In this document: positions 24,804-46,099 of the stretch, in pieces | Layout: every line of letters begins with the position of its first letter | Position numbering within the stretch: the stretch's first letter is position 1 | Sequence record: OP557969.1 | Reading direction: 5' to 3' (one strand) | Length of the DNA stretch: 64,000 nucleotides | Source: Escherichia phage ph0011 | Made by a program: the position numbers and the translations under genes | Notes under the pieces: generated by a model | What the model saw: only the letters and a program-made list of their open reading frames with translations | What the model was told of the DNA's origin: nothing | Databases searched by the model: none

Positions 24804-25295
24804 ATGTTTGTCTTCCCTGAAGAGTCATTTAATTTCATTGATCCTACAGATGATGGGTATAGACATATTAACATTTATAGTAAAGCCAGAACTAAGCTAG
24901 GTAGAGATCTATCTAATTTTTCTTCGTATAGCTTCACACTGGAACCATATGGGTGGTTCCCATCAGTTGAAACGTTTTACTTTTGGTTTTTAACTGGTCA
25001 AAAACATGATGATCTTAGAAAAGTATCTGGTGCAGCAGCAAAGGCTGCTGCTAACAAATATATGCATGATAGAATTATAATGACTGATGATTGTATCTCT
25101 ATTATTCAAGATGCAATTTGTGCTAAGATAATTCAAAACCCAGAGTTATCTGAAAGATTAAGAAAAAGCAAATTACCATTTTACCATTACTATGTTTATG
25201 GTGGGAAGGTTGTTGATGTATCTGATGAGCATGACTGGTTTGTTAAAACATTCGAAGATATAAGAATTGTTTTAAAGGAGAATCACAATGACTAA
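24804..25295 (+). CDS. hypothetical protein
   Basis: 163-aa ORF. Confidence 0.5.
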   Translation: MFVFPEESFNFIDPTDDGYRHINIYSKARTKLGRDLSNFSSYSFTLEPYGWFPSVETFYFWFLTGQKHDDLRKVSGAAAKAAANKYMHDRIIMTDDCISIIQDAICAKIIQNPELSERLRKSKLPFYHYYVYGGKVVDVSDEHDWFVKTFEDIRIVLKENHND

Positions 25296-25566
25296 ATGTT
25301 GGGTATGTTGTAAGCATTTCGATGAAGAATATGATATTTCTTTGGATGTATACCATCAGCAATACATGATATCATCGGGAAAATATAAACTAGATACCTT
25401 CCCAACTCCTAAGTATATGGGGATTTGTCCATTGTGTAATGGGAATGGTGTATTAGACATTGTTATTGAATTCACAAATACACAAACTACTGATTGTGTT
25501 GCCGCATATATAAGAGATAATCTTGATTTTTTCACTAGGAGATTATATGAACGAGAAAATATTTAA
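25288..25566 (+). CDS. hypothetical Cys-rich protein (possible zinc-binding)
   Basis: 92 aa; CWVCC...CPLCNG cysteine pairs. Confidence 0.45.
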   Translation: MTKCWVCCKHFDEEYDISLDVYHQQYMISSGKYKLDTFPTPKYMGICPLCNGNGVLDIVIEFTNTQTTDCVAAYIRDNLDFFTRRLYERENI

Positions 25567-25783
25567 TTCATATAATATGGAAGATTTACTAATACCATCC
25601 GAGAACAGTACTGTTAAGATGCAAATGTATTGGTTAGTAAAAGATGGTAAAGTATTTCAACACAAAGTTACAAAAGTATGGCAATGTAACAAAAACAAGT
25701 CAATAGTTGATACACTAGCAACTGCATTTCCAGGGGTGGAGGTTGTATTTTTACCAGTTGCTTATATTAAGGAAATAAAATGA
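25523..25783 (+). CDS. hypothetical protein
   Basis: 86-aa ORF; start probably ~25549 (MNEKIF). Confidence 0.4.
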   Translation: MIFSLGDYMNEKIFNSYNMEDLLIPSENSTVKMQMYWLVKDGKVFQHKVTKVWQCNKNKSIVDTLATAFPGVEVVFLPVAYIKEIK

Positions 25784-25947
25784 AAAAAACATGGACAATA
25801 TTCGTAATACCTATTATAATGTTGTTATTGGTAATCACGGTTCCACAAGTATACGTTGTTGCTTTGAATGTGGTGGAAATTATTCTTCTTGTAATTCATT
25901 GCCTTGTGTGTTATTACTACGTAAAATGGGATGATAAAAAAATATGA
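25780..25947 (+). CDS. small hydrophobic membrane peptide (55 aa)
   Basis: Own reading: ATG overlapping upstream stop (ATGA), MKKTWTIFVIPIIMLLLVITVPQ..., ends in ATGA overlap with next gene; below the track's 60-aa cutoff. Confidence 0.4.
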   Translation: MKKTWTIFVIPIIMLLLVITVPQVYVVALNVVEIILLVIHCLVCYYYVKWDDKKI

Positions 25948-26366
25948 AGTACTATCGAATTCGAGTTGGTGTAAGCTCAGGTTTTAGTAATTGGGTATAT
26001 TATGATTTGCCTGATAGCTATACCGTAGAAGATGTAATTAACTTATATTATGAAGAAGAGACATGGGTACTCAGTACTGAAACACATAGTGTAGTGTGTG
26101 AAGAGCTATGTGCCGAAGATTACAAGCACTGTGTCCAAGCAATGAAGTATTACAGTAAAGAAGTGAAGATGTTATCTGAAAACATTTTTCCGGTAAAAGA
26201 ATGGGCAATTTTACTTGCAAATCCTAACAAACCTGTTAGAATTGGTTATCCAAACAATCATATGGTTTATCGAATGAATAACAAACGTGAGCTAAGTTAT
26301 CAGTATGATTACAGTGCTTCTAAGTTTGGAGTTCTACCACAATTTAAAAAGGCTTATCCAGTATGA
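25944..26366 (+). CDS. hypothetical protein
   Basis: 140-aa ORF. Confidence 0.5.
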   Translation: MKYYRIRVGVSSGFSNWVYYDLPDSYTVEDVINLYYEEETWVLSTETHSVVCEELCAEDYKHCVQAMKYYSKEVKMLSENIFPVKEWAILLANPNKPVRIGYPNNHMVYRMNNKRELSYQYDYSASKFGVLPQFKKAYPV

Positions 26367-26698
26367 GCAATGACAGCAAAGAATTTATAGTACGTTGTAG
26401 TTGTGGTGATAATACTGAACATTGTATTCACATTGCACAATATGACTTGACACAAGAAGATGGAGATGGTAAACTTGGTCAATGTTTGGTGAGTATGCGT
26501 TTGAATCCTTTCTTAAAATGGCACAAACGTATATTGGTTGGGTTGAAGTATATTTTCGGTGTAAACGATTTTCAATACAAAGAAGCAATGATTGATGTTG
26601 ACATTCTGAAAGAAGTTGTGTTACAATTAGAAGACACCCGTCCCGATGAGGTAAAGAAAGAAGAAAGAGATAAACGTAGTGATGTGAAGGTTTTATGA
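26363..26698 (+). CDS. hypothetical protein
   Basis: 111-aa ORF, ATGA overlap. Confidence 0.5.
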   Translation: MSNDSKEFIVRCSCGDNTEHCIHIAQYDLTQEDGDGKLGQCLVSMRLNPFLKWHKRILVGLKYIFGVNDFQYKEAMIDVDILKEVVLQLEDTRPDEVKKEERDKRSDVKVL

Positions 26699-26889
26699 GT
26701 ACTGAACTTTATGAAAAAAAGTACTGTACAAATTGCTCAACTGAGTATACAATACAAGGTATGTTAATTTGTACAATATGTAAGTCAAAAGAATCAGCTA
26801 CATTCATAGTTGATGATAGATTTAGTGATTTAAAACAGTTTAAAGCAAACCGCAATCTTCGTATTTTTAGCAATCTAAATAAGGAATAA
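26695..26889 (+). CDS. small zinc-ribbon-like protein
   Basis: 64 aa; CTNC...CTIC cysteine pairs. Confidence 0.4.
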   Translation: MSTELYEKKYCTNCSTEYTIQGMLICTICKSKESATFIVDDRFSDLKQFKANRNLRIFSNLNKE

Positions 26890-26895
26890 CATTTT

Positions 26896-27324
26896 ATGAA
26901 TATCGAACAAATCATCCGTAATCATTCTTTCTTCGCCCCAGAGACTGGTCGTGTAATTGAGAATGTCAAAATCGAAGAACTTATGGTGAATGTTAAATAC
27001 AAAGAACCAAATGATGAGATTAGTAGCACTTTTTGTGCACTTCGTGCACCATTCCGCAATGAAAAAGCAAAAAAACCAGCATATGTTCTTGCAATTGCTT
27101 TAGGATGTGTTGTTAAACTTGCAGTTGATGAAAATATTATTAATATCAAAGTCGCCCCTACCAATGACGAAGAAAACATTGATTTGAACTTTGATGGTAA
27201 TCTCGACGAAGATGTATTTTTTCAACAGTCACTTGTTTATGACTTCCGTACCGTGACATATTCACATATTAACTTCGTCAATGAAATGGTTGATATTGTA
27301 GCCAAATATGAAGAATCTCTATAA
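26896..27324 (+). CDS. FQ-motif family paralog
   Basis: 142 aa; C-terminal DEDVFFQQSLVYDFRTVTY; followed by terminator. Confidence 0.55.
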   Translation: MNIEQIIRNHSFFAPETGRVIENVKIEELMVNVKYKEPNDEISSTFCALRAPFRNEKAKKPAYVLAIALGCVVKLAVDENIINIKVAPTNDEENIDLNFDGNLDEDVFFQQSLVYDFRTVTYSHINFVNEMVDIVAKYEESL

Positions 27325-27334
27325 TTAAATCATA

Positions 27335-27360
27335 AAAGCCTCCATGTTGGAGGCTTTTCT
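27335..27360 (+). terminator. rho-independent terminator
   Basis: AAGCCTCCATGTTGGAGGCTT + TTCT. Confidence 0.7.
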
Positions 27361-27381
27361 CACATAAGGAAATGAAGAAAT

Positions 27382-27933
27382 ATGATTGAACAAATTAATA
27401 TTCTCACACAACAAATTACCGACTTTCTCTCAGATAAAGAAGGTTTCAAAACTGAAGTGAAAATGCACGGCGTTAGTCTTGATGTAATTTCACCAGATGG
27501 AAATGTTACAAATTATGATATGTACGAATTGTTTCTTTACACTTTAGCAGTACGTAAACTAGGAAGTGACATTGAACTAAACATTAACACTGATAGTGAT
27601 GGAAATAAAATTTTTGCAATCAATACAAGTGCTAAGTATGATGTTAGTGCAGAAATTAAAAAAATTAACGATAGCTTTGTTGGTTTCACCCATGATTCAA
27701 TTCAAGGTGTTTTTGTAGGTAAACAAACTTCATCAAGTCAATGTCCATTTTGTATTATGACTTTATATAAAAATGGTGATTGGATGCGACAAGACTTGGT
27801 ATATGCTGAAATGTTGTATGCATTTACACATGGTCTAGAAATTGAATTAGATGATAGTGCTTTTTGCTTTAAGAAAATCCGAAAACTCACAAATGATATT
27901 CAAAAGCAACTTAAAGAATTAAATGATAAATAA
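27382..27933 (+). CDS. hypothetical protein
   Basis: 183-aa ORF. Confidence 0.5.
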   Translation: MIEQINILTQQITDFLSDKEGFKTEVKMHGVSLDVISPDGNVTNYDMYELFLYTLAVRKLGSDIELNINTDSDGNKIFAINTSAKYDVSAEIKKINDSFVGFTHDSIQGVFVGKQTSSSQCPFCIMTLYKNGDWMRQDLVYAEMLYAFTHGLEIELDDSAFCFKKIRKLTNDIQKQLKELNDK

Positions 27934-28044
27934 ATGTACCAGAAGTGGTTAACATATCATGTTATTTTCCTCCCTTACATAATAATGATGCGTTATTAGA
28001 TTTTCATTTTATTATTTCTTTTTTGTACAAAATCATATTAGTAC

Positions 28045-28070
28045 TGCCCCGTATATCGGGGCATTTTATT
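28045..28070 (+). terminator. rho-independent terminator
   Basis: TGCCCCGTATATCGGGGCA + TTTTATT. Confidence 0.65.
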
Positions 28071-28233
28071 ATCTAAAATATGGTGATTTTATGAAAAACA
28101 TTGGCTCTTCTATACAAAAAGACCTTTCATTTTACCTTAATAAATTCAGAAGTATAAATGGTAATAAATTTAATAGTATCTATCAGTTCACACATAAAGA
28201 ATATATTACTATTGATCCCTTTTCAAAAAACTG

Positions 28234-28482
28234 ATGTATGTTAATGATAATAATTATAGTGTTAAATTATCATTCGATATTGTGTTGGATAAATTAACAT
28301 TTACGGAATACACTACCAATAAAACTTCATTTTTACACAAGTATAATAGAAAGGTATATAATCATATTTCTAGTTATTTAAATGAAGAATATTACTTTCA
28401 ACAATCTACAATAGAAAAAGTATTATTCAGTACTGAAGAATTAAAAGAATTATATTATTGGTATGAGAAATTTACATCTTGA
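28234..28482 (+). CDS. FQ-motif family paralog (short, possibly truncated)
   Basis: 82 aa; NEEYYFQQSTIEKV motif; an upstream ~47-codon ORF in another frame may be its displaced N-terminus. Confidence 0.4.
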   Translation: MYVNDNNYSVKLSFDIVLDKLTFTEYTTNKTSFLHKYNRKVYNHISSYLNEEYYFQQSTIEKVLFSTEELKELYYWYEKFTS

Positions 28483-28537
28483 CATTATGGTGGTTTCATC
28501 TTACAATACAAGATAATGATGCGTTGAGGACAAATTC

Positions 28538-28948
28538 ATGAGTATAGATTTACACAATGAACTACAATATTTTTTTGATTTGGATATATCACGTTTGAAC
28601 AGACATGTCAATCATATATCCAGAACTATATGGTGGTCTGATGAGGCTGATGAACCAAGGATTCAGATTTGTGATAATTTGTCAGTTTTAAGATTGTATG
28701 TTCTTGATACCGAAATGAATATTATGATAACATACGTACCACCCACAAACAAACTTCTAATCAACACACTAAACCCAGATACAGTACTGAAAATTTTTGA
28801 TTTGGATACGATACAGTCAAGCGAAACACTATTCCAACGTTCATTGGTTGATGATCTAGGGGGTATTTCTTTTGACGATATATTAAAATTGAAGAAGATG
28901 TATAATGAATTATTAGAGATTAAAAATACCGTTCTAATGGGGATTTAA
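28538..28948 (+). CDS. FQ-motif family paralog
   Basis: 136 aa; SETLFQRSLVDDLGGISFDDI. Confidence 0.55.
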   Translation: MSIDLHNELQYFFDLDISRLNRHVNHISRTIWWSDEADEPRIQICDNLSVLRLYVLDTEMNIMITYVPPTNKLLINTLNPDTVLKIFDLDTIQSSETLFQRSLVDDLGGISFDDILKLKKMYNELLEIKNTVLMGI

Positions 28949-28949
28949 T

Positions 28950-29354
28950 ATGGTAAGTTTATTAGATATTGATAATACTAGTCTGGTTCTGGTGAAAAAA
29001 GGATTAATTCCAAATTCTAACAAGATTGATTATGCTGTTATTGAAACAAATATTGGGAATATCTGGTACGACTCTGAAAGAGACATTGTGTTTAGCTGTG
29101 TAGATAGTGATCGTTCTGAGTGCTGTAGGGTTGGGCATGACGGACAATTTATTTTCGAATTTCGTTTCTGGAAAGATTCCAGATTTCACCAGGAGCATGT
29201 TTCAATTACAAATGTAAATTGTAATGAAGAATCATTCTTCATGGAAAGTACTATTAATGATTTTGGCTCAGTTACTTTTGAGTACTATAAAAAAGTATAT
29301 AACTTGTACAGAGAAGTAATTCGAATCATAAGAACCTCTGAGGGTCAAGATTAA
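28950..29354 (+). CDS. FQ-motif family paralog
   Basis: 134 aa; NEESFFMESTINDFGSVTFEY. Confidence 0.55.
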   Translation: MVSLLDIDNTSLVLVKKGLIPNSNKIDYAVIETNIGNIWYDSERDIVFSCVDSDRSECCRVGHDGQFIFEFRFWKDSRFHQEHVSITNVNCNEESFFMESTINDFGSVTFEYYKKVYNLYREVIRIIRTSEGQD

Positions 29355-29355
29355 T

Positions 29356-29733
29356 ATGACTACTACCATATATAATATTTTAGGTAACTTGAATAAAAAC
29401 ATAGATAATGATTTTGTTATAGTTGAAAACACTAAAAATATAATTCATCTACCATTGGGTACACCAGATAGGTTAATTTTTAACATATACGCTAACACAC
29501 TGACATACATACACGATGGTATGGTTATCGTTGTGCTTGATATTAAAGAAAATACAATACGATATGCATATGACTTTAACGTTTATTGGTCAAGAACTCA
29601 TAGTATTGATATTGAGGAAGATGAACTTTTTCAATTATCGTTAATTGAGAAAAATGTAATAGGAGTTACCGAGATTGGTATTGTTAAAAAAGCTTTGGAA
29701 TATGCAAATAAAAAAATAAATGGCGAACTATGA
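29356..29733 (+). CDS. FQ-motif family paralog
   Basis: 125 aa; EEDELFQLSLIEKNVIGVTEI. Confidence 0.55.
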   Translation: MTTTIYNILGNLNKNIDNDFVIVENTKNIIHLPLGTPDRLIFNIYANTLTYIHDGMVIVVLDIKENTIRYAYDFNVYWSRTHSIDIEEDELFQLSLIEKNVIGVTEIGIVKKALEYANKKINGEL

Positions 29734-30194
29734 TGAACATTGAGGAAATAAAAAATCATTTTGAAATTGCATTGTCTTGTGATTTTGATAGTTGTTATGT
29801 TACTGAACCAGAAGATATAATTAGAATTTCCACATCGTTTTCAGAAGAATACAATATACTCATTGAGAAATCATATGACAGAACCGAACTCTCATTTTAC
29901 AATAAGGATTTACGAACAACATCATTTATATTATTATATAACACAACATCGGATATAATAGAGATTATAACAAGTAAAACAGGTAAAACAAGTAAAGATG
30001 TACATTATGAGACTATACCAAATGTAAGTTATTGTTCAACAGAAGAAGGATACTTCCAGGAATCACTTATTAAAAATTTATCAGTTAGCTATTCTGATTT
30101 AAGCATTATAGTCAATTATGTGGAAAAGTTAAATGATTTCGTTCTATCGATGTTTGATATCACTGAGCAAAAACCAAAGGAAATCAAATGTTAA
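29730..30194 (+). CDS. FQ-motif family paralog
   Basis: 154 aa; TEEGYFQESLIKNLSVSYSDL. Confidence 0.55.
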   Translation: MMNIEEIKNHFEIALSCDFDSCYVTEPEDIIRISTSFSEEYNILIEKSYDRTELSFYNKDLRTTSFILLYNTTSDIIEIITSKTGKTSKDVHYETIPNVSYCSTEEGYFQESLIKNLSVSYSDLSIIVNYVEKLNDFVLSMFDITEQKPKEIKC

Positions 30195-30643
30195 ATCCTG
30201 GACATTTTTTTCATTTACTGGACATTACACCTATACCCGATTTGATCAGCGAGACTAATCATTATCGTGATATTGGAATTGTATCAATGGAATATGATTC
30301 ACCTGACTTTAAATGTTACGTAACATACGATCAGGTGGCTTATGAGTCAGAGCCTGAGATTAAAAAACCATCATATATTTTTGTGTTCATATATAATGAT
30401 TATAGTGGTGATGTACTGAATGATGTTCATATTGACACATTTGAAATATGTGGTAATATTATATCAGATGATTCAGCATCCACATTTGATTTGGAATTAA
30501 ACAGTACTGAAGAGTCACTTTTTCAGTTGAGTACTATATGTGATACTATATTAACTCTAGATGACATTGAGAAATTTAAAGAACAGCTTGACGCAGTTCG
30601 TGAGATGTTCTATAATCATTATCCAGAAGTAGAGTTCAATTAA
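30188..30643 (+). CDS. FQ-motif family paralog
   Basis: 151 aa; TEESLFQLSTICDTILTLDDI. Confidence 0.55.
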   Translation: MLNPGHFFHLLDITPIPDLISETNHYRDIGIVSMEYDSPDFKCYVTYDQVAYESEPEIKKPSYIFVFIYNDYSGDVLNDVHIDTFEICGNIISDDSASTFDLELNSTEESLFQLSTICDTILTLDDIEKFKEQLDAVREMFYNHYPEVEFN

Positions 30644-30657
30644 CTAAAGGTAATAAA

Positions 30658-30918
30658 ATGACAAAAGTAGTTCGTAAACGCCACATGATGAATATGGATG
30701 AATTTCGTACATTTGACAAATATCGTACTATGTTTCGTATGCTGTCACAGGGTCGCCCAATCGTCATTGTAACAGAGAATTACATGTCACCTGAGATTAT
30801 GTTTGGTAATTACGAAAAGGTCTTCATGTTGTACGTGAAGCGTGGATTGCTTACAATCAAGACATTAGCTGAAGCAACTGATGATGATATGGATGGAGAT
30901 AATACCTTTACCATGTGA
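30658..30918 (+). CDS. hypothetical protein
   Basis: 86-aa ORF. Confidence 0.45.
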   Translation: MTKVVRKRHMMNMDEFRTFDKYRTMFRMLSQGRPIVIVTENYMSPEIMFGNYEKVFMLYVKRGLLTIKTLAEATDDDMDGDNTFTM

Positions 30919-30957
30919 GGAAATATATGTCTGAAAAACCAAAAGAACCTTTAGATC

Positions 30958-31248
30958 GTGATGATGATTTTTATGACGAACGATATGGAGATGATAATGA
31001 GTAAAAATAGTGCGGTGCTTAAAAAGATTTTAAAGGAAATTGATGGTGAATTTAATGTCACAGAAGAAGAATATCAGCATTGGAAGAAAGATTTCGAACA
31101 ACTAACCGAGTATGATAAAGTGTTCAATATGATTGGCGTAATTAGCCAGTACTTACTTGGTGGAGGACGTGCAAGTGCTTCAATTCTGGCATCTGCAATC
31201 ATCTGCACATCACGATGGTGTGATGAAAAAAGTTTGGAAGATTTCTAA
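30958..31248 (+). CDS. hypothetical protein
   Basis: 96-aa ORF; real start probably ~30997 (MSKNSAVL). Confidence 0.4.
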   Translation: MMMIFMTNDMEMIMSKNSAVLKKILKEIDGEFNVTEEEYQHWKKDFEQLTEYDKVFNMIGVISQYLLGGGRASASILASAIICTSRWCDEKSLEDF

Positions 31249-31254
31249 ATAAGA

Positions 31255-31263
31255 TGCTATAAT
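31255..31263 (+). promoter_or_regulatory. extended -10 element (TGcTATAAT) upstream of MTase gene
   Basis: GATGCTATAATAT about 40 nt before ATG 31301. Confidence 0.35.
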
Positions 31264-31300
31264 ATATCAGAGTACCTTAACAATATAAAAAGGATTTTAT

Positions 31301-33181
31301 ATGAAACCTATCCGAGTACTATCTCTTTTTAATGGAATGAGTGTAGGATACATGGCATTAAAAGATGCTGGTATCCCTGTTGAAAAATATTATTCATCCG
31401 AAATTGACAAATTTGCTATAGCTGAATCCCAAGCTAACTTCCCCGATATAATCCAATTGGGTGATGTAACTAAGTGGAGAGAATGGGATATTGAATGGGA
31501 CAAGATAGATCTACTGATGGGTGGTTTTCCATGCTTCCCAGCAGGAACTATGATAATGACAAATAAAGGTCATAAAGATATAAAAGATATAAAAATTGGT
31601 GATATGGTTCTTACACACACTGGACAGTACCAAAAAGTATTGAGTACTGGTGTTAAAAAGGCTCCCACTCGTATTATTACGGGTCAAGGTCACCTTCCAA
31701 TTGAATGTACCGATAATCATCCATTTTGGAGTAGGGAACGTCTAGCCAATAAATGGAATAATCAACGCCGAAGATATGATTCTGTGTTTTCTGAACCGCA
31801 ATGGGTAAATGCTATAGATCTTACTAAACAAAGTTATATTTGTAATGTTAAAAATATTACACATAATACTGTAAGTGATAAAGATGAAAAATATTGGTAT
31901 TTTGTTGGTCGTTTTATGGGTGATGGATGTGCTAGTGTATCTAATAACAAATACAGTATTACTATTGTAGATTCATTAGATAAAGTTGATGAATTGAAAA
32001 AATGCTTTGATGATTTTGGATACAAATACACATTAGCTATTAAAGATAATCATGTAAGATGTGATATATATAGCAAAAAGCTTTATGATGAATTAATATG
32101 TATTGGGCATAAATCACAAAACAAATGTTTACCACCTGAAATATTCAATGAAACTATCAATAACAAAGAAGCATTTATTAAAGGATACATGGATGCAGAT
32201 GGTTGTGAGGATAAACACAATAAAAAATACAAATTTACCACCACAAGTTATAAAATAGTTCTTGGTATGCAACAGTTAATCTTAGATACTTATCAAAGTC
32301 ATTGTACTATTAGCCAAACTGTTCCAAAAACAAAAAAATATATAAAAAATAAGTTGGTTAATCAGCTTCCGTATTGGAATGTTCATTTTAGCTATAATAA
32401 AATTAAAAGAGATGATGTAATATATGATGAAATTTATATATGGAATCGTGGTGTAAAAAGTAATGTACCAACCGGAGAATGGAAAACCGTTTACAATATT
32501 GAAGTTGCAGTAGATAACACATATACAGCGAACAATATTGTAGTTCATAACTGCCAAGCGTGGTCAGTTGCAGGTAAACAGGGTGGAATAAATGATCCTC
32601 GTGGTATGTTATTCCATACAATGGTTGATATTTACCAGCACATAAAAAGTCTCAATCCAGACTTGAAAGTACTGTTCGAGAATGTTAAAATGAAAGAAGA
32701 TTTCAAGCAATACATTAATAGTGTTCTTGAGATGACACCAGTACTGATAAATTCCCAGCATTATACGCCTCACTTCAGGCAGCGATATTACTGGTACAGT
32801 ACTGATAAACTTTTTATACCACCTGCATTATCCAATGCACCTAAACTTCAAGATATTATTGAAGATGGTTGGTACACTGACAGAACCGCTTCGTACTGTA
32901 TAGATGCTAACTATTTTAAGGGTGGTGATTGTAACCAGTACTTTAATAAATCAAGAAGACAAATTGTTTTCAAAGAACCTGATATCGATAGGGATTTCCT
33001 TCTTGAACATGGTAAGCGAAATGTGGACTATCGTCATTTAACAGTACAAGAGTGTTGCATGTTGCAAGGAATTGATGTAAACTACTTCAAAGTTAGTAGT
33101 TCAACACAAGCATACAAAATGCTTGGGAATGGATGGACTATGCCAGTTATATCACACTTACTACGAGATATATTCTTTTGA
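31301..33181 (+). CDS. DNA (cytosine-5)-methyltransferase interrupted in-frame by an intein
   Basis: 626-aa ORF; exteins carry C5-MTase motifs I (LFNGMSVG), IV (GGFP-C...QAWSVAG), VI (FENV), X (LGNGWTMPV); 340-aa insert between them. Confidence 0.8.
   Translation: MKPIRVLSLFNGMSVGYMALKDAGIPVEKYYSSEIDKFAIAESQANFPDIIQLGDVTKWREWDIEWDKIDLLMGGFPCFPAGTMIMTNKGHKDIKDIKIGDMVLTHTGQYQKVLSTGVKKAPTRIITGQGHLPIECTDNHPFWSRERLANKWNNQRRRYDSVFSEPQWVNAIDLTKQSYICNVKNITHNTVSDKDEKYWYFVGRFMGDGCASVSNNKYSITIVDSLDKVDELKKCFDDFGYKYTLAIKDNHVRCDIYSKKLYDELICIGHKSQNKCLPPEIFNETINNKEAFIKGYMDADGCEDKHNKKYKFTTTSYKIVLGMQQLILDTYQSHCTISQTVPKTKKYIKNKLVNQLPYWNVHFSYNKIKRDDVIYDEIYIWNRGVKSNVPTGEWKTVYNIEVAVDNTYTANNIVVHNCQAWSVAGKQGGINDPRGMLFHTMVDIYQHIKSLNPDLKVLFENVKMKEDFKQYINSVLEMTPVLINSQHYTPHFRQRYYWYSTDKLFIPPALSNAPKLQDIIEDGWYTDRTASYCIDANYFKGGDCNQYFNKSRRQIVFKEPDIDRDFLLEHGKRNVDYRHLTVQECCMLQGIDVNYFKVSSSTQAYKMLGNGWTMPVISHLLRDIFF
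31532..32551 (+). mobile_element. Intein with LAGLIDADG homing-endonuclease domain inside the C5-MTase gene
   Basis: Begins CFPAGTMIM (block A Cys1), two LAGLIDADG-type motifs (FVGRFMGDGC, FIKGYMDADGC), ends VVHN followed by extein Cys (PCQ catalytic Cys as +1 residue). Confidence 0.75.
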
Positions 33182-33183
33182 AC

Positions 33184-33663
33184 ATGAACAACTACCCCAC
33201 TTATACAGAACGTGCAATGGAATTTAAACGTCAGTTAGCCAAGGATGAATTAGAATTTAATTTGTATTATCCTAATATTGGTGATGAGGTATTGTATAGT
33301 TCTCATGCTAAGAATGGAACTTTACTTCATTCCGGTAAAGGTATTGTTGTGGATATGATTAGTACGTTTAAAGGAAAACTTAATGTAATGTACAAAGTAC
33401 AAGATTCAAGTACTAAGTGTATTCATGAAGTGATGCATAATATACCTACATACCCAAAAGATTTTGTTGAGCTAATATCTCGAAGGGAGAAACCTATGTT
33501 CTATTGTGGTTACGACAAATTAACCAAACAAATTATTCCTAATACTATGGGAAAATTTAAAAGTGATGTAAAATCTGAACTTAATAAGAAATTAGGTTCT
33601 TCATGGGAAACTGAAAACGAGTTTATCGAAATTCGTTTAATTGAAGTTACTATTCTTGATTAA
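33184..33663 (+). CDS. hypothetical protein
   Basis: Track ORF 33133-33663 overlaps MTase; likely start at ATG 33184 (MNNYPTYTERAME). Confidence 0.5.
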   Translation: MNNYPTYTERAMEFKRQLAKDELEFNLYYPNIGDEVLYSSHAKNGTLLHSGKGIVVDMISTFKGKLNVMYKVQDSSTKCIHEVMHNIPTYPKDFVELISRREKPMFYCGYDKLTKQIIPNTMGKFKSDVKSELNKKLGSSWETENEFIEIRLIEVTILD

Positions 33664-34222
33664 TTATAAATCCACGCATTGCGTGGATTTTTTCATAGGT
33701 GCATATATGACAGTTCCGTATGTTAAAATTATTAACAATATCCTTGATTTATGGGAAGATGTTATTACCGGTAAAAAGAATCCAATACCAGTACACGTAC
33801 TAACTGGAAGACTACAATTCAGAATGTCTAACAAAACTGAAACGTTTAATAATCATGATATTTGTATTACATTAAAAACACCTGTTAGTATTGTAATTAA
33901 AAAAAATAAAGATGATGAATTGTCATTATCTATTGGTCGTGATAAAATTATTTTAAGTAATTTGTCTGAAGAAGAATTCTTTCAAAGAAGTACTATCATC
34001 GACATGAAAGATTTCACATATGAATCATTAGTAGAACTCAATACACGTTTTGATGATATTCAGGAACGATTGCGACCAATACTCCGTAGAGAAGAAGAAG
34101 CCTGGATTGAAAGTATGAAGAAGATGCAAGAAATGTTAAAAGAAAATATTAACAATCTTGGTAAAACAACAATGGAAATTGGTAAAACTTTAAAACTCAA
34201 CTTTTCAAAGGATCGTAAATGA
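33641..34222 (+). CDS. FQ-motif family paralog
   Basis: C-terminal SEEEFFQRSTIIDMKDFTYESL; likely start ~33707 (MTVPYVKI) after terminator. Confidence 0.5.
   Translation: MKLLFLINYKSTHCVDFFIGAYMTVPYVKIINNILDLWEDVITGKKNPIPVHVLTGRLQFRMSNKTETFNNHDICITLKTPVSIVIKKNKDDELSLSIGRDKIILSNLSEEEFFQRSTIIDMKDFTYESLVELNTRFDDIQERLRPILRREEEAWIESMKKMQEMLKENINNLGKTTMEIGKTLKLNFSKDRK
33669..33695 (+). terminator. rho-independent terminator
   Basis: AATCCACGCATTGCGTGGATT + TTTTC. Confidence 0.7.
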
Positions 34223-34671
34223 AAATCGATGAACTGATTTATATTTTAGGTAACTTGCACAAAATATTGTTACATCGCAACGAGATGAATAAACTAGGGT
34301 ATAATATAACTAATTTAAATGAAACATCATTTAAATATAACTCAATCACTGGTGGAAATTATAATATTGTGTATTGTCATGAAACTGACCCTGACTGCTA
34401 TCAACTTACGTTATACTTTTATCCAACAAACCCTACCATTGTTCAAGACATATCATCAATATCACTTGACCCAGATGGTGAAATGAGTATAGAATATAGC
34501 TATGATTCTAAAAAAGAATGTTACGTTGAAGATATGAAAAATATGTTTAACGATGCATATGTGTTCCAGCTAAGTACTGTACATGATGTTGGAAGTACTA
34601 ATGGGCAATTTTGGAATACATGCTATTATCATATGATTGGAATTTGTAAATTACTAAAAGGCGATGATTAA
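34219..34671 (+). CDS. FQ-motif family paralog (divergent)
   Basis: 150 aa; DAYVFQLSTVHDVGSTNGQF. Confidence 0.5.
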   Translation: MKIDELIYILGNLHKILLHRNEMNKLGYNITNLNETSFKYNSITGGNYNIVYCHETDPDCYQLTLYFYPTNPTIVQDISSISLDPDGEMSIEYSYDSKKECYVEDMKNMFNDAYVFQLSTVHDVGSTNGQFWNTCYYHMIGICKLLKGDD

Positions 34672-35054
34672 TGAAATACAGCATTGAAGTACATTACACT
34701 ACTGGTGATACTGAAAATCAATATAACATAGTTAAGACCATTGATGTTCAATGGGATACTAAAGAGGAAGCAGTTGCTGCTTTACAGTGTCTAAAAGAGC
34801 ATTGGGTGTTTTATATGAAGCAAGATAATTGCCATACAAAAGAACGCGAAACTATCGTTAAAAATGCTAAACAAAAAGAGTGGTTTGACCCAATTTCACC
34901 AGAATATTCATTTTTGGTTAAAGTTGGTGGCGTGACAGTACCCTTACGAACACCGTGGAACGGCTACTTTGAAACTCTTCATAATGCACGAGTTGTCGCT
35001 GTTGACAATCCTGAACAAATCGATTTTGATTCATTGGACTGGAAAAAATTATGA
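34671..35054 (+). CDS. hypothetical protein
   Basis: 127-aa ORF. Confidence 0.5.
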   Translation: MKYSIEVHYTTGDTENQYNIVKTIDVQWDTKEEAVAALQCLKEHWVFYMKQDNCHTKERETIVKNAKQKEWFDPISPEYSFLVKVGGVTVPLRTPWNGYFETLHNARVVAVDNPEQIDFDSLDWKKL

Positions 35055-35494
35055 CAGTACTGCACCAATTGAAGAAGGTTAAGCATCCAGTTGTATATGA
35101 GGACTGGAAACGTCAGAAGCTGATGGGTGACTTTTATTACCCAAAATCTAAAGTTCTTGCGAATTCAAGATGTACATATATCAAACATAACGATAAAGAT
35201 ACAGTATTTGTTGAAATGGGGTTCAATCCATCAAATACAATGTTCAGTACTAACCAAACATTTTACAAATTTCATATCCAAAAAGATGTATTTTCTATTA
35301 AAATTATAAAACATTTAGTTGAAGATCTGGTATACAGTGAAGAAAGAGTTCCTTTATCATTAGTGGATATTCCTTATAATAATTTAGAGGAAATGTACTT
35401 CCAACAGTTGACAGTACAAGAAAACTTTGGTATGATAGGACTTCAAGAGTTAGAGATGATTAAGCAAATTCGTGATATCTACTTTAAGGGGTAA
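35051..35494 (+). CDS. FQ-motif family paralog
   Basis: 147 aa; NLEEMYFQQLTVQENFGMIGLQEL. Confidence 0.5.
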   Translation: MTVLHQLKKVKHPVVYEDWKRQKLMGDFYYPKSKVLANSRCTYIKHNDKDTVFVEMGFNPSNTMFSTNQTFYKFHIQKDVFSIKIIKHLVEDLVYSEERVPLSLVDIPYNNLEEMYFQQLTVQENFGMIGLQELEMIKQIRDIYFKG

Positions 35495-35496
35495 CT

Positions 35497-35640
35497 ATGC
35501 CAGTACGTAACAGTACTTCACGCTTTACGCTTCAACAGAAAGCAGATCTTTTGAATATGGCAAACAAAGATTCTAATTATTACTATCTAGTACTCGGTGG
35601 TTCAGTTGAAAAGATTGACCTACGTGCGTGTATGAAATAA
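35497..35640 (+). CDS. small hypothetical protein (47 aa)
   Basis: Own reading: ATG 35497 (MPVRNSTSRFTLQQ...), below track cutoff. Confidence 0.3.
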   Translation: MPVRNSTSRFTLQQKADLLNMANKDSNYYYLVLGGSVEKIDLRACMK

Positions 35641-35653
35641 CAAAGGGGATAAA

Positions 35654-35824
35654 ATGAGCTTACGTGAATCATGGGAACAATTTAAAGAAGAGATTGGTTA
35701 TCGTGGTGTTAAGATTGAACAAATCAATCGTACTGAAAGCATCAAAGCTAGTACTAATGGAACTACCTATGATCGTTATGATGAAAAGTATGGTTTACAT
35801 TCTAAACCAAAGGATACTGAATAA
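35654..35824 (+). CDS. small hypothetical protein (56 aa)
   Basis: Own reading: ATG 35654 (MSLRESWEQFKEE...), AGGGGA RBS upstream. Confidence 0.35.
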   Translation: MSLRESWEQFKEEIGYRGVKIEQINRTESIKASTNGTTYDRYDEKYGLHSKPKDTE

Positions 35825-35967
35825 TGGTGTATACTAACATTTTTACTGGTATTATGCGTAAGTTTGTTAATGGTATTGGATATGTATCCAATGACAACGG
35901 TAGTACATGGGTAAAAAATAATACGTCCGAATCTTTAGTGAAAAGTCTTCCGTATTATAAAGCTTGA
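35824..35967 (+). CDS. small hypothetical protein (47 aa)
   Basis: Own reading: ATG overlapping upstream stop (MVYTNIFTGIMRKF...). Confidence 0.3.
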   Translation: MVYTNIFTGIMRKFVNGIGYVSNDNGSTWVKNNTSESLVKSLPYYKA

Positions 35968-35992
35968 CACATGAAAATGGAGTATGTATAAT
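35964..35992 (+). promoter_or_regulatory. sigma-70-like promoter (TTGACA-17-TATAAT), -10 within inverted repeat
   Basis: CTTGACACATG...TGGAGTATGTATAATACTCCA; IR GGAGTAT/ATACTCC spans the -10. Confidence 0.5.
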
Positions 35993-36009
35993 ACTCCAAT
36001 ATTAATCAA

Positions 36010-36597
36010 ATGAGGATATGCGAAATGGCTGGTGTTGATAAAATTTGTGAATTCAGTGGCGATTATGAAGGTTACGAAATGTACAAGTCCAAGCGTAATC
36101 ACATTCAAGTACTGTCAAAATATCGAAAACATTTTCGTGGACATAAAGCAACATTGTATATTTTTGAGAATGGATATTCTGAAGTTTTCACAAGTGGTGG
36201 GTACAGTACAGCTAATATGGCACATATCAACCCAAACCCAACTGAAGATGATTGGAATAGTGGTAATGCTTTTCGTATTTCAATTTTGAATAAAATGAAT
36301 CGATACGACCGTTATTGTACATTCTTTGAAAATATTTCAGAATACAAGCAAGCATTAAAGAAATATAATCAACGCTTACTAATGAATTATGATTACATTC
36401 TTCATGTACCTACTGTTCCAGGTCAGGTTAATGGTCTGTACACGAACAGTACACATGATTTAACTGCGGTGAAGCGTCGTCTTAAACGTATGTTGGGTCA
36501 TGGAAAACTAACTATCAAGATTATGCGTAATGAATCTATGTATAACTTTTTAAATGTTCTTCATTACACATTAAAGGATAAAAATGGAAGCGATTAA
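36010..36597 (+). CDS. hypothetical protein
   Basis: 195-aa ORF downstream of promoter at ~35964; start may be ~36025. Confidence 0.5.
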   Translation: MRICEMAGVDKICEFSGDYEGYEMYKSKRNHIQVLSKYRKHFRGHKATLYIFENGYSEVFTSGGYSTANMAHINPNPTEDDWNSGNAFRISILNKMNRYDRYCTFFENISEYKQALKKYNQRLLMNYDYILHVPTVPGQVNGLYTNSTHDLTAVKRRLKRMLGHGKLTIKIMRNESMYNFLNVLHYTLKDKNGSD

Positions 36598-36781
36598 GTT
36601 TATTTTTGAGGTACTTATTGCATTCATCGTATGTACTGTATCTATTGCTATTTCTTTAATCCCAGTCATCATTTACCAAGTCTATGGTGGCACAGACCAA
36701 ACAATTGATATGCTTCTTCGTTGTTTTGGTTTCTGTATATGGTTGATTATGTTTATGTACTATATGCATATTGAGGACTGA
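36584..36781 (+). CDS. small membrane protein
   Basis: 65 aa, two hydrophobic helices. Confidence 0.45.
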   Translation: MEAIKFIFEVLIAFIVCTVSIAISLIPVIIYQVYGGTDQTIDMLLRCFGFCIWLIMFMYYMHIED

Positions 36782-36783
36782 TT

Positions 36784-37614
36784 ATGTCATTGGAAAAATT
36801 AATCATTTCCGAATTCCGAAAGTACATCATGGATTGTGATAGAGATATCCAGCGTAAATTCAATGAGTATCTTGACAAATATCCATATTTGATGTTTAAT
36901 CCATTTGAAACTCAAACCGATGTTAAACTTGGATTTTACATTGGGTTTACTCAACGAATTCTACAACAATATGAGATGAAACAGGCAGAGGTTTGGGTAG
37001 AAACTGATTCGAATGAGACGAATGTTTTTTACCTGTACTCTTATTATGCGGAAATTGTTAGTTCAATGACACTAGAAGGGTATCTATTCGTCAAAACATC
37101 TGATATTGAAAAAATATACATAGAACCTGTATCTTTGGATATGGTTGCCCAGCTTCCGACTATCCAGCAAATGGATGCGAATGAATTGACATATTCAGTA
37201 TTTGAGTACCTTAATAGAGATGATTTAACTCAAGAAATTGAGAATATGGTTGCATCATATACTTCAACTCTTATATCTAATGGTTCACTTAGAATAGAAC
37301 TGATTTACGACGATACTAGTACTAATGCAGTACGAGGTACTCGAATTGGAAAAGTTACTATACGTGTTGTCCACAATGATGTAGTACTTGGTTATATTTC
37401 GAAACGTGGTCATGACTTGTGTATGATTAACGCATATGTTATTGACCGAAAAGAATGGAACGATTTAATGCAAAAAATCGTAGACGGAAGTGGAATTCGT
37501 GATATAATGAGTAATGAAACAGTGATAATTAATCCTGATATTGACTGTGATGTATATTTTCCAGTTCCTGGATTTACACTACGTAATTTTGGTAAATTAA
37601 AGGATACAAAATGA
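36784..37614 (+). CDS. hypothetical protein
   Basis: 276-aa ORF. Confidence 0.5.
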   Translation: MSLEKLIISEFRKYIMDCDRDIQRKFNEYLDKYPYLMFNPFETQTDVKLGFYIGFTQRILQQYEMKQAEVWVETDSNETNVFYLYSYYAEIVSSMTLEGYLFVKTSDIEKIYIEPVSLDMVAQLPTIQQMDANELTYSVFEYLNRDDLTQEIENMVASYTSTLISNGSLRIELIYDDTSTNAVRGTRIGKVTIRVVHNDVVLGYISKRGHDLCMINAYVIDRKEWNDLMQKIVDGSGIRDIMSNETVIINPDIDCDVYFPVPGFTLRNFGKLKDTK

Positions 37615-37901
37615 AAATTTTAGAAGTTTTACTTGAAAAAGATGCATCTGGTACTCTTTATGTTGGTAATGATTTCAGTCCTGATCCAATTGATATGATA
37701 CAGCGTATTCAATCACTGACCCAATCAATTTCAGTTAAACAACCTTTCCTAAAAGAATTGGAAATTCATTGCGATAAAGACATGGAGCAGCATGATAATG
37801 TTATTTCTGATATCAAAAATCTGTTGACAAAGAATGGATATGTGGAGTATAATCCTCCTATCGTAATCGTTATCCCTGACTTCATGAGAGGAACATTGTA
37901 A
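37611..37901 (+). CDS. hypothetical protein
   Basis: 96-aa ORF, ATGA overlap. Confidence 0.5.
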   Translation: MKILEVLLEKDASGTLYVGNDFSPDPIDMIQRIQSLTQSISVKQPFLKELEIHCDKDMEQHDNVISDIKNLLTKNGYVEYNPPIVIVIPDFMRGTL

Positions 37902-38170
37902 TGACGAAAGAAGAAATGAAATCTCGCTTAAGCGAACTGAAGAAAGAACGCAAACTAGTCCGTTTGGACTGGGACATTCTTAACAAAAAAGATGAGCAAT
38001 CATATGCTAACTGGAGTTCTGATAAAGTTCGCAATGAACGTAGTAAAGAAGACAACAAACAGTTTATGGCACTGTCCAAGCGTTTATCTTCATTGAACAG
38101 TGAGATTACTGGTCTTCAAAAGGAAATTATTTCAATTCTTCGAGCGGAAATTAACTCACTATATGAATAA
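37901..38170 (+). CDS. hypothetical protein (coiled-coil-like)
   Basis: 89-aa ORF, K/E-rich. Confidence 0.45.
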   Translation: MTKEEMKSRLSELKKERKLVRLDWDILNKKDEQSYANWSSDKVRNERSKEDNKQFMALSKRLSSLNSEITGLQKEIISILRAEINSLYE

Positions 38171-38459
38171 ACATGAAGTATTAGTATTAGATAATAAATT
38201 CTATGTACCAAATGATGATAGTACTGAAACATATTATCTAATTAATAAAATTATGACTGAAACTAATACTTGTTGTCGTCAAATCCCAGGAAAATATGAG
38301 TTCAGTCAGTCTATTGGCTATTATCGTTATAATCCATTGGAATCATTTACAATTGACGTGTTGAAAATCATTGACATTCTTGTACAGAATGGGTATAATG
38401 AAAAACATGTAAATAACTCAGAGTTACCAGTTTCAAAAATCGTTATTTCTAATAATTAG
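38163..38459 (+). CDS. hypothetical protein
   Basis: Track ORF 38100-38459 trimmed to ATG 38163 (MNKHEVLVLDN) overlapping upstream stop. Confidence 0.45.
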   Translation: MNKHEVLVLDNKFYVPNDDSTETYYLINKIMTETNTCCRQIPGKYEFSQSIGYYRYNPLESFTIDVLKIIDILVQNGYNEKHVNNSELPVSKIVISNN

Positions 38460-38479
38460 AATTGGATAATAACAGATGA

Positions 38480-38490
38480 TGTGATATAAT
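38480..38490 (+). promoter_or_regulatory. extended -10 promoter TGTGATATAAT
   Basis: Same 11-mer as at 13566 and 43615; followed about 35 nt later by a terminator-like hairpin. Confidence 0.45.
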
Positions 38491-38524
38491 GTTTTTATCG
38501 GCAGATGTTAAAATGCAAACCATT

Positions 38525-38546
38525 CCTCAATGATGAGGGTTTTTTC
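38525..38546 (+). terminator. terminator-like hairpin after TGTGATATAAT promoter
   Basis: CCTCAATGATGAGGG + TTTTTTC. Confidence 0.5.
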
Positions 38547-38573
38547 ATTAAAAAGAAATAAAAGGGTATTAAA

Positions 38574-38783
38574 ATGGCTAAAGAAATTCACGCACAAGTA
38601 CTAGATATCACCGACTTCGACCGCACTGTGAACTACATTCAATTCCAGATTCATCAAGCTGAAGAAGCTCTTGCTGCATTCCATGGTACTGGTGCAAGGC
38701 CAATCCGTTTTGCTCACCTAGTTGCATGGAAGAAAAGTCTACAAGAAGAACTGTCTGAAATGCGTAAAGCAAATCGTAAGTAA
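38574..38783 (+). CDS. hypothetical protein
   Basis: 69-aa ORF with AAAGGG RBS, followed by terminator. Confidence 0.5.
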   Translation: MAKEIHAQVLDITDFDRTVNYIQFQIHQAEEALAAFHGTGARPIRFAHLVAWKKSLQEELSEMRKANRK

Positions 38784-38792
38784 TCTGTTTTC

Positions 38793-38820
38793 GCCCCATC
38801 AATTTTGGTGGGGCATTTTA
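38793..38820 (+). terminator. rho-independent terminator
   Basis: GCCCCATCAATTTTGGTGGGGC + ATTTTA. Confidence 0.6.
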
Positions 38821-38846
38821 ATCACATAAATCAAGAGGATTAACAC

Positions 38847-39353
38847 ATGAGTATCGAGTATTGGTTTTTGTTTGTGTGTATTGGAACACTTGCATTAATT
38901 ACAATTGGATTAATTTTTAATACAATGATTACTGGAAGTAAGTACTTTAAAACATTCCAGCTTTTAATGTCAGCTATGCCATATAGTGCAGAAGCCGAAA
39001 AAACAATTTCTCTAATTTTAGATAAGTTCGATGCAAATCTGTTAGTTGCGAAAATTTCGGATTGTAATACAAATATGGTATTTTATTCTACCGTCGATGA
39101 ATCAGGTACAAAATATGACAAATGTACATCTCCTATAGTTGCTGAAATTTTTATTGGTTCAAAATATTATGCTTACGGGTATGTAAGAAAATATTATTCT
39201 GAAGCAAAAGCTGAGTTAACGAAGAAACGCCCATCGGTAAAAACATTAAAACGTATCATTGCGTTGGAAAATAAACTTCGTGGCGAAATTAATACAAATG
39301 AACCACCATCAGTAATTAAATCAAAAAATAATATTGTCGTGGAGTTAGAATGA
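38847..39353 (+). CDS. membrane-anchored hypothetical protein
   Basis: 168 aa; N-terminal TM (WFLFVCIGTLALITIGLIF). Confidence 0.5.
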   Translation: MSIEYWFLFVCIGTLALITIGLIFNTMITGSKYFKTFQLLMSAMPYSAEAEKTISLILDKFDANLLVAKISDCNTNMVFYSTVDESGTKYDKCTSPIVAEIFIGSKYYAYGYVRKYYSEAKAELTKKRPSVKTLKRIIALENKLRGEINTNEPPSVIKSKNNIVVELE

Positions 39354-43606: not shown

Positions 43607-43722
<116 letters not shown>

Positions 43723-43729
43723 CAAAAGA

Positions 43730-43803
43730 CGGGGTATAGCACAATTGGATAGTGCAAGAGAATTCTAATCTCTAGGTTGGGGGTTCAAGTCCCTCTACCT
43801 CGG
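43730..43803 (+). tRNA. tRNA-Arg(TCT): tRNA-Arg (anticodon TCT)
   Basis: Acceptor CGGGGTA/TACCTCG (one G-U), D-arm GCAC..GTGC, anticodon stem AGAGA/TCTCT with loop ATTCTAA, T-loop TTCAAGT. Confidence 0.7.
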
Positions 43804-43827
43804 CCTACTTTAATTAAAGGTTAAACC

Positions 43828-43992
43828 ATGACGCATGAAGAATGGATGAATGACATTAATTTTAGATATGCAGGTATCGGTAACTGGAGAAAGTATCATT
43901 GGGAAATCATATCAGACCCAGCAGAATACGATAAACTTATGAATCATGAAGTGTATCCGTGGTTCTTTATTGAAATAATGGTACGATTATGA
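43828..43992 (+). CDS. MTHEEW-family mini-protein
   Basis: Own reading: 54 aa MTHEEWMNDINFRYAGIGNWRKYHWEII...; below track cutoff. Confidence 0.45.
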   Translation: MTHEEWMNDINFRYAGIGNWRKYHWEIISDPAEYDKLMNHEVYPWFFIEIMVRL

Positions 43993-44149
43993 CACATGAA
44001 GAATGGATGAATGACATTAATTTTAGATATTCGGGTATCGGTAAATGGCTAAAGTATCATTGGGAATTCATTTCAGAGCCACATCTGTATGATAAACTTA
44101 TCAACGATTCTGCATATAAAATGTACTTAATTGAACTACTGGTACGAAT

Positions 44150-44153
<4 letters not shown>
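43989..44153 (+). CDS. MTHEEW-family mini-protein
   Basis: Own reading: 54 aa MTHEEWMNDINFRYSGIGKWLKYHWEFI...; ATGA overlap. Confidence 0.45.
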
Positions 44154-44322
<169 letters not shown>

Positions 44323-44325
44323 AAG

Positions 44326-45038
<713 letters not shown>

Positions 45039-45044
45039 GATAAA

Positions 45045-45078
<34 letters not shown>

Positions 45079-45084
45079 GAATTC

Positions 45085-45440
45085 CACAATCAGACGTATA
45101 TGGTGTAAGTTACGTCGATGCAATCCAGAACAAGATCTCTGGTACTCTAGGAAGTGGTTAATGTTAACCTAGACGGGTTTGATAATTGGACGATAGGCAA
45201 TTATTACTTGACTAGCAGGTTTAAACTAGAGGTGACTATCCTTCACCAAACTGGAAAACCGGATGGACTTTTATTTAAAAGGGTAAGGCGTGGAAATATG
45301 TTTACAGTAGTTGCTTTTAGTAGCCTGTACGCCCCACGTCAAGGTAGCCGAAAGGCAAGTTAAAACGGGTGGTTATAAAGCTGAATTAACAGCGGCGTTT
45401 AAAAGCGTCACCATCCATTTTTTTTAATTAAAGTTGGTGA
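45085..45440 (+). ncRNA. candidate non-coding (stable RNA?) transcript downstream of repeat promoter copy 3
   Basis: ~355 nt with no convincing ORF, higher GC than surroundings, directly after a promoter and ending near a T-run (CACCATCCATTTTTTTT). Confidence 0.3.
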
Positions 45441-45441
45441 T

Positions 45442-46080
<639 letters not shown>

Positions 46081-46099
46081 CTTTTTAATTTAAAAGTAC

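Follow-up and report, generated by a model that had tools for sequence, protein, structure and literature searches.

A predicted class-1 intein with a LAGLIDADG endonuclease at the catalytic cysteine of a C5-cytosine DNA methyltransferase in an Asteriusvirus jumbo phage

At positions 31301..33181 of the 64,000-nucleotide stretch of Escherichia phage ph0011 analysed here (sequence record OP557969.1; hereafter the window), a single open reading frame (ORF) joins the two parts of a C5-cytosine DNA methyltransferase (MTase) to a 340-residue insert lying immediately before the catalytic cysteine, which raises the question of whether the insert is an intein that leaves the precursor by protein splicing, and whether it still moves as a homing element. 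A preliminary description, made from the sequence letters and their reading frames, had read the locus as an intein with a LAGLIDADG homing endonuclease placed at the catalytic Pro-Cys-Gln (PCQ) motif of the MTase. Pfam domains, an alignment of 20 inteins, an AlphaFold2 model and Foldseek searches all upheld this reading, and we consider it very probable that the element, which interrupts an Asteriusvirus C5-MTase in frame between Pro77 and the catalytic Cys, is a self-splicing class-1 intein carrying a LAGLIDADG homing endonuclease. All features of the gene are given in window coordinates on the + strand, and a caret marks a splice junction or insertion point.

The ORF begins with ATG, ends with TGA and encodes 626 aa; its translation bore out the motifs quoted in the preliminary description at their residues. 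The N-extein (aa 1-77; 31301..31531) contains motif I, LFNGMSVG (aa 9-16; 31325-31348), and closes with the first half of motif IV, GGFP (aa 74-77; 31520-31531), and positions 1-72 of the PF00145 profile align with aa 4-79. The C-extein (aa 418-626; 32552..33181) opens with CQAWSVAG (aa 418-425), in which Cys418 is the catalytic residue and the predicted +1 splice nucleophile, and continues with motif VI, LFENV (aa 458-462; 32672-32686), motif VIII, RQRYYW (32777-32794), and motif X, LGNGWTMPV (aa 608-616; 33122-33148). C5-MTase motifs I, IV (PCQ, read across the junction), VI, VIII and X are all present in the ORF and in order. In Pfam, PF00145 (DNA_methylase) was found in split pieces around Hint and LAGLIDADG domains (expectation value, E, 4.6e-29), and its score rose from 102 to 123 bits once aa 78-417 were deleted, the spliced extein reaching E 2e-35. 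The NCBIfam model TIGR00675 (dcm), with a cut-off of 100.65, scored 95.5 with the intein and 115.1 without it. Against the PDB, the spliced extein matched DNMT3A/3B (E 2e-24) and M.HhaI (E 5e-17), with motif IV aligned without a break. Thus the extein-only alignment to C5-MTases proposed beforehand succeeded, both in passing the dcm model and in matching M.HhaI. The solved structures nearest to the 286-aa spliced MTase are the mammalian DNMT3A/3B/3C catalytic domains, with M.HhaI and M.HaeIII (about 1e-17) behind, and its N-terminus reads KPIRVLSLFNGMSVG vs KPIRVLSLFDGIATG in DNMT3A/3B/3C. To judge from its length, small like that of the DNMT3 catalytic domains, the enzyme probably has a minimal target-recognition domain. 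In intein-bearing alleles the exteins are under strong purifying selection, with a ratio of nonsynonymous to synonymous substitution rates (dN/dS) of 0.02-0.19.

The insert lies exactly between Pro77 and Cys418 (GGFP^CQ), and the intein-free orthologue of phage 121Q is contiguous at this point, reading ...LLMGGFP^CQAWSVAG..., as are the gap-free GGFP^CQAW alleles of PBECO4, G17, fEgEco12, Turkey5 and EJP2. The restoration of GGFP-CQ by removal of aa 78-417, which the preliminary description had foreseen, is therefore seen directly in 121Q and agrees with the rise of both profile scores. The intein itself (aa 78-417, 340 aa; 31532..32551) has the class-1 arrangement Cys1...His-Asn and matches Hint_2, Intein_splicing and LAGLIDADG_3. 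Its Hint N-lobe (31532..31735) comprises block A, CFPAGTMIMTNKG (31532-31570), opening with CFPAGTMIM... at aa 78, and block B, ECTDNHPFW (31703-31729), with the TxxH residues T137-D-N-H140; the Hint C-lobe (32486..32551) comprises blocks F and G, TVYNIEVAVDNTYTANNIVVHN, and ends ...IVVHN with His416-Asn417. The Hint_2 match (aa 77-134) scored 34.3 bits vs a Pfam cut-off of 28.4, and the gp41-1 intein in the PDB was also matched by sequence. Comparison with intein blocks A, B, F and G thus gave the expected residues, and all class-1 residues are present, namely Cys78, T137/H140, His416-Asn417 and Cys418 at +1. The N417^C418 junction, with Cys418 opening CQAWSVAG, bears out the earlier assignment of the catalytic Cys as the +1 extein nucleophile of a predicted splicing reaction.

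Conservation across the 20-intein alignment points the same way. C1, the block-B H63 and the terminal Asn (N340) are invariant and T60 occurs in at least 90% of the sequences; the Gly/Asp positions of both LAGLIDADG motifs and a conserved Lys are likewise invariant, and the window copy keeps all of these residues. Position 4 of block F is Asn and not the commoner Asp. The Hint N-lobe is 85-90% identical in amino acids to those of the inteins of phages TH47 and A4, the C-lobe is 98-100% identical in nucleotides to that of A4, and the Hint domains are under purifying selection (dN/dS 0.06-0.11). A tblastn search of the 64-kb window found no second copy of the intein. We conclude that the insert is a genuine class-1 intein with a two-motif LAGLIDADG endonuclease, for which splicing is predicted from the sequence and the structure model.

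The homing-endonuclease module (aa 146-395; 31736..32485) has a LAGLIDADG_3 match and an I-DmoI-like fold. LAGLIDADG motif 1 reads YWYFVGRFMGDGC (aa 198-210; 31892-31930) and contains GRFMGD208G; the conserved Lys275 follows at 32120-32140, and motif 2, FIKGYMDADGC (aa 292-302; 32174-32206), contains GYMDAD300G. LAGLIDADG_3 scored 41-44 bits vs a cut-off of 22.5 (E 3e-11; 41 bits for the match at aa 289-341). D208, G209, K275, G295, D300 and G301 show no variation among 70 more distant relatives, and the endonuclease reading frame is free of frameshifts and stops. The GC content of the module is 27.7% vs 36-37% in the exteins. An AlphaFold2 model of the intein, built on the 20-intein alignment, had a mean local confidence (pLDDT) of 92.6 and a predicted template-modelling score (pTM) of 0.90, and assignment by DSSP revealed in it the pseudo-dimeric alpha-beta-beta-alpha-beta-beta-alpha fold (H119-131/E/E/H149-162/E/E/H182... 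and H209-223/E/E/H240-254/E/E). The best Foldseek matches were PI-SceI (E 4e-19), the Tli/Pho VMA inteins (template-modelling score up to 0.73), PI-PfuI and PI-TkoII, and the nuclease domain of the model matched the free-standing LAGLIDADG enzymes I-DmoI and I-SceI. PI-SceI (the yeast VMA1 intein), the Tli/Pho VMA inteins and PI-PfuI combine a Hint splicing domain with a LAGLIDADG endonuclease as the window intein does (E 4e-19 to 6e-13), whereas they are only 13-18% identical to it and reside in vacuolar ATPase (V-ATPase) or ribonucleotide reductase (RNR) hosts, and the window intein, at 340 aa, is shorter.

These features allow a route from precursor to active enzyme to be proposed. The 626-aa precursor would be inactive as an MTase, because the intein splits motif IV from motifs VI-X and puts 340 residues between motif I and the catalytic Cys. 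Splicing would begin with an N-S acyl shift at Cys78, after which Cys418 would attack the thioester (trans-thioesterification); cyclisation of Asn417 and an S-N shift would then release the 286-aa MTase, with Cys418 regained as its catalytic nucleophile. In a mixed infection, the free 340-aa intein would cut intein-free alleles site-specifically (GGTGGTTTYCCA^TGCCAAGC...), and repair of the break from an intein-bearing genome would copy in both the intein and the extein sequence beside it.

Whether the intein has in fact moved can be approached through its distribution. The preliminary description had placed the gene in a T4-like background; instead, the window matches only Asteriusvirus jumbo phages (UE-S1, 121Q, PBECO4, TH47, G17 and others; 348-386 kb) and not the Tevenvirinae type. 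Nor is the presence of a C5-MTase notable in itself, as had been supposed for a T4-like background, since the gene is conserved across the Asteriusvirus group and in related jumbo phages such as GAP32, XbC2 and Erwinia phages. Some 30 related phages, among them 121Q and PBECO4, have the 286-aa MTase gene without interruption, and the intein is carried by 4 of about 36 Asteriusvirus records: UE-S1, TH47, JNE01 and A4. The closest match to the gene is UES1_076 of Escherichia phage UE-S1 (358 kb; 99.2% identical in nucleotides), annotated only as 'cytosine specific methyltransferase', and the window and UE-S1 inteins differ by 6 nucleotides, 5 of them synonymous and 1 non-synonymous. An identity of the window with UE-S1 was ruled out, the gene differing at 15 of 1881 nucleotides and the flanks being 81-89% identical in a comparison of window positions 25272-39172 with UE-S1. 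A metagenome contig in ENA (ERZ27258023 k141_54157; 118.9 kb) is 99.94% identical to the window over the 7.9 kb compared and encodes the identical protein (P0027). The window flanks at 26300-30300 and 33250-37250 are at most 92% and 84% identical, respectively, to any record of the phage collection. By its sequence, the window is an Asteriusvirus lineage without a representative in that collection.

The putative homing site, at which cleavage is predicted, consists of a left half (31508..31531) and a right half (32552-32575), reading GATCTACTGATGGGTGGTTTTCCA^TGCCAAGCGTGGTCAGTTGCAGGT when fused. Alleles without the intein have this target nearly intact: the intein-free 121Q/PBECO4 allele reads GATTTATTAATGGGTGGTTTCCCA^TGCCAAGCCTGGTCAGTTGCAGGT, and 121Q differs from the fused window site at 5 of 48 positions, all of them third codon positions and 1 within -15..+8. 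Downstream, a C-extein tract at 32588..32661 (+37..+110) varies with the presence of the intein: the four alleles that bear it all read INDPRGMLFHTMVDIY here and the 121Q type reads LNDIRGQLFLVMVEIF, consistent with the trace that co-conversion during homing would leave. On a larger scale, a 2.3-kb tract (30900..33190) is at least 99% identical to UE-S1, with its right edge at the MTase stop codon; it contains at most 1 difference per 100 nucleotides, vs 20-45 per 100 in the adjoining DNA. The flanks are closest to BF17, Turkey3 and fEgEco12 (91.8% and 83.6% identity), all of which have the intein-free allele. As the tract is nearly identical to UE-S1 and the closest relatives of the flanks are intein-free, the intein-bearing allele has moved recently between diverged genomes. 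This evidence of mobility fits endonuclease-driven homing and ordinary recombination alike: the MTase gene is a recombination patchwork that alternately matches A4 and TH47, and recombination there is clearly frequent irrespective of the intein.

Comparison of the intein-bearing alleles revealed a second kind of exchange. The sister alleles of TH47, vB_EcoM_JNE01 and A4 occupy the identical site in the orthologous gene, share the C-extein tract with the window and have Hint lobes 82-100% identical in amino acids, but they differ from the window in the endonuclease module, where identity falls to only 41-43% in amino acids and 40-65% in nucleotides (about gene nucleotides 405-1155). The divergence sets in directly behind block B and ceases directly ahead of block F, at the borders between Hint and endonuclease, and the first ~28 and last ~30 codons of the intein are 96-100% identical to A4 in nucleotides. 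At synonymous sites the window has diverged from A4 by 0.07 in the C-terminal Hint lobe and by 0.53 in the module; the segments therefore differ in history and not merely in constraint. The sister endonuclease module is itself under purifying selection (dN/dS 0.09-0.12). No donor of the window module was found among 1.84 billion representative proteins, the best match, protein P0027 aside, being 33% identical. To judge from these sequences, two deeply diverged endonuclease lineages share one Hint scaffold within a single genus.

Several observations weigh against a self-splicing, homing intein in the window. The family motif IEGRxVNQ, conserved among relatives, reads IKNKLVNQ in the window module, and a segment of 6-7 residues that follows LAGLIDADG motif 1 in most relatives is absent; both departures could mean that endonuclease activity is altered or reduced. 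The dN/dS between the window and sister modules is 0.42-0.66, a value made uninformative by saturation of the synonymous rate. Moreover, general homologous recombination could yield lateral transfer without endonuclease-driven homing, and splicing, endonuclease activity and methylation all remain predicted activities. An intein late in its homing cycle, which keeps splicing with an inactive or decaying endonuclease module, descends vertically and moves only by general recombination in co-infection, would account for the departures from IEGRxVNQ and the lost segment; the low GC content of the module, the patchwork recombination of the gene regardless of the intein, and the mini-inteins and degenerate-endonuclease relatives at the same site (P0001, P0020-P0026) also favour it. 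However, the window module has kept both catalytic Asp residues, the conserved Lys and the Gly residues of its two LAGLIDADG motifs in an unbroken frame, five of the six differences from the UE-S1 intein are synonymous, and the exchanged tract has the intein-bearing gene at its centre and terminates with the stop codon of that gene; we regard such decay as rather unlikely, though a serious alternative.

Two further explanations concern the fate of the MTase. If the insert were a non-splicing domain or the gene a pseudogene, the MTase would be permanently disrupted; nothing specific speaks for this apart from the Asn at block F position 4, and that residue is the family norm in relatives under selection. 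The splice nucleophiles and the residues of blocks B and G are all present and conserved, and purifying selection acts on both exteins and on the Hint lobes, making a dead insertion extremely improbable. A regulatory role is compatible with a self-splicing homing intein, in that the element could have been co-opted as a post-translational switch in which conditional (for example redox-sensitive) splicing through Cys78 and Cys418 times the activation of the MTase. Conditional splicing is documented for some inteins with Cys at positions 1 and +1, and insertion at the catalytic nucleophile would make activity strictly dependent on splicing. Yet most relatives have no intein, a patchy distribution of this sort is what a selfish element would give, and the sequence gives no specific sign of regulation; we hold co-option to be improbable. 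A class-1 intein that splices and carries a homing endonuclease remains the preferred explanation.

The preliminary description had further called a DNA MTase active site an unusual place for an intein, a view that the relatives contradict. An intein-only tblastn search returned full-length relatives, 25-30% identical, in annotated methylases of Mannheimia phage 587AP2, the P1-like RCS47 (Dmt), Propionibacterium phage B22, Lactobacillus phage Nyseid and EBPR siphovirus 2, each with the junction ...P^C...HN^CQ... at motif IV; most of these genes are named simply methylases in GenBank. The inteins of RCS47 Dmt, B22 gp50, Nyseid, 587AP2 and EBPR siphovirus 2 gp44 resemble that of the window in host family, insertion point and the combination of a class-1 Hint with a LAGLIDADG endonuclease, whereas their amino acid identity to it is only 25-34%, and, unlike the MTases of those phages, the window MTase belongs to a small DNMT3-like subfamily (286 aa) in a jumbo-phage host. 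A word-indexed search of 5.8 billion proteins returned 26, nearly all combining PF00145 with Hint and including mini-inteins at the same site. The 70 proteins nearest to the endonuclease core (representatives of clusters at 50% identity) include 61 C5-MTases, and a census of junctions in 152 related proteins with complete intein ends gave P^C..HN^CQ in 87 and P^C..N^C in about 135, the latter being metagenomic cluster representatives. The window intein is therefore a new, unannotated example of a known and populous type.

Two observations on these relatives may be added. In Mannheimia phage vB_MhS_587AP2 (L006:1264-3100), the frame after ...VVHN^CQ stops within about 20 codons, and the C-terminal part of the MTase is annotated as a separate coding sequence in another frame, with a gene for an HNH endonuclease after it; this allele could be frameshifted, decaying or the product of a sequencing error. 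Many intein-bearing metagenomic C5-MTases (P0008, P0011-P0013, P0016-P0020, P0022) have a CxxC...CxxC zinc-ribbon-like insert just after motif IV, for example WxCxxCGHEYNPLTVHWSxRxKCPxCGS, which Pfam Zn_ribbon_8 matched in 2 of the 70 members scanned and which is unrelated to the window enzyme.

The literature has touched on such inteins from several sides. 'DNA methylase ... C-5 (IPR001525)' figures among the hosts that a 2025 preprint on actinobacteriophage inteins gives as already reported (bioRxiv 10.1101/2025.01.02.630785); beyond this listing as a host, no explicit description of an intein at the catalytic Cys of a C5-MTase was found in the open-access papers searched. Mycobacteriophage inteins were reported in N6/N4 methylases (DNMT-1/2) (Kelley et al. 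2016; PMC5050341); they share with the window intein a phage DNA methyltransferase host and a LAGLIDADG endonuclease (24% identity), but differ in the class of methylase and in the site, HV^CPLQFD. Rak2-like phages have terminase inteins, as the CBB paper noted. The UE-S1 genome paper called UES1_76 a DNA methyltransferase, with no mention of an intein or of homing.

The family also extends to another enzyme. Outside the genus, the closest phage intein is that in the thymidylate synthase (ThyA) of Aeromonas phages PS1/PS2 (PS1: L011:1501-2511), which is 30.5% identical and lies at ...LTP^CH..., that is, at the catalytic Cys; the metagenomic ThyA proteins P0103 and P0131 have the same P^CH arrangement. 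The ThyA inteins thus resemble the window intein in occupying a Pro^Cys nucleophile site, and ThyA and C5-MTases have in common the chemistry of Cys attack on C6 of a pyrimidine, although the host protein is different. In a rough neighbour-joining tree rooted on DnaE, the three ThyA inteins were monophyletic in 100 of 100 bootstraps and nested among C5-MTase inteins in 93 of 100. The likeness of the two insertion sites at the DNA level is limited to CCN^TGCCA. The tree and the junctions suggest that an intein may have switched between the Pro-Cys nucleophile sites of ThyA and C5-MTase. More broadly, we tentatively propose, as a possibility we rate below even chances, that C5-MTase motif-IV inteins form a large, essentially undescribed and modular lineage, in which two endonuclease modules (41-43% identical) have been swapped at the domain borders within one phage genus and an intein has jumped between C5-MTase PCQ and ThyA PCH. 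If true, the jump would be natural 'extein switching' directed by the active-site motif that the two enzymes share, and it would be directly testable through phages of the UE-S1 type, the TH47 type and the intein-free 121Q type, all of which grow on E. coli.

The window intein does not overturn current understanding, and its interest is in part practical. The enzyme would lend its own catalytic Cys to the splicing reaction as the nucleophile, so that the phage's anti-restriction MTase would be non-functional until the intein has spliced out. The intein also creates a blind spot in annotation, lowering the MTase below the NCBIfam dcm cut-off; it is unannotated in all four of its GenBank records (ON568341, OR670491, ON286972 and MT446416), one of which says 'hypothetical protein'. 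The genus grows on E. coli, has members in culture that bear the intein and others that lack it, and includes two endonuclease variants, and so offers a convenient system in which intein homing, co-conversion and module exchange in jumbo phages, as well as the movement of inteins between Pro-Cys active sites, might be studied.

The MTase gene sits in a run of co-oriented ORFs of 125-190 aa and of unknown function (28538-30643 and 33133-35494), several of which share a C-terminal '...F(F/Q)QLSTI...' motif; an all-vs-all BLASTP comparison for paralogy among these flanking ORFs gave two weak matches only. Farther downstream, seven tRNA genes lie at window positions 43636-48038 (Ser-TGA, Arg-TCT, Ser-GCT, Ser-ACT, Met-CAT, Asn-GTT and Thr-TGT), among which the assignment of an ACT anticodon to a tRNA-Ser (46740-46831) is unusual.

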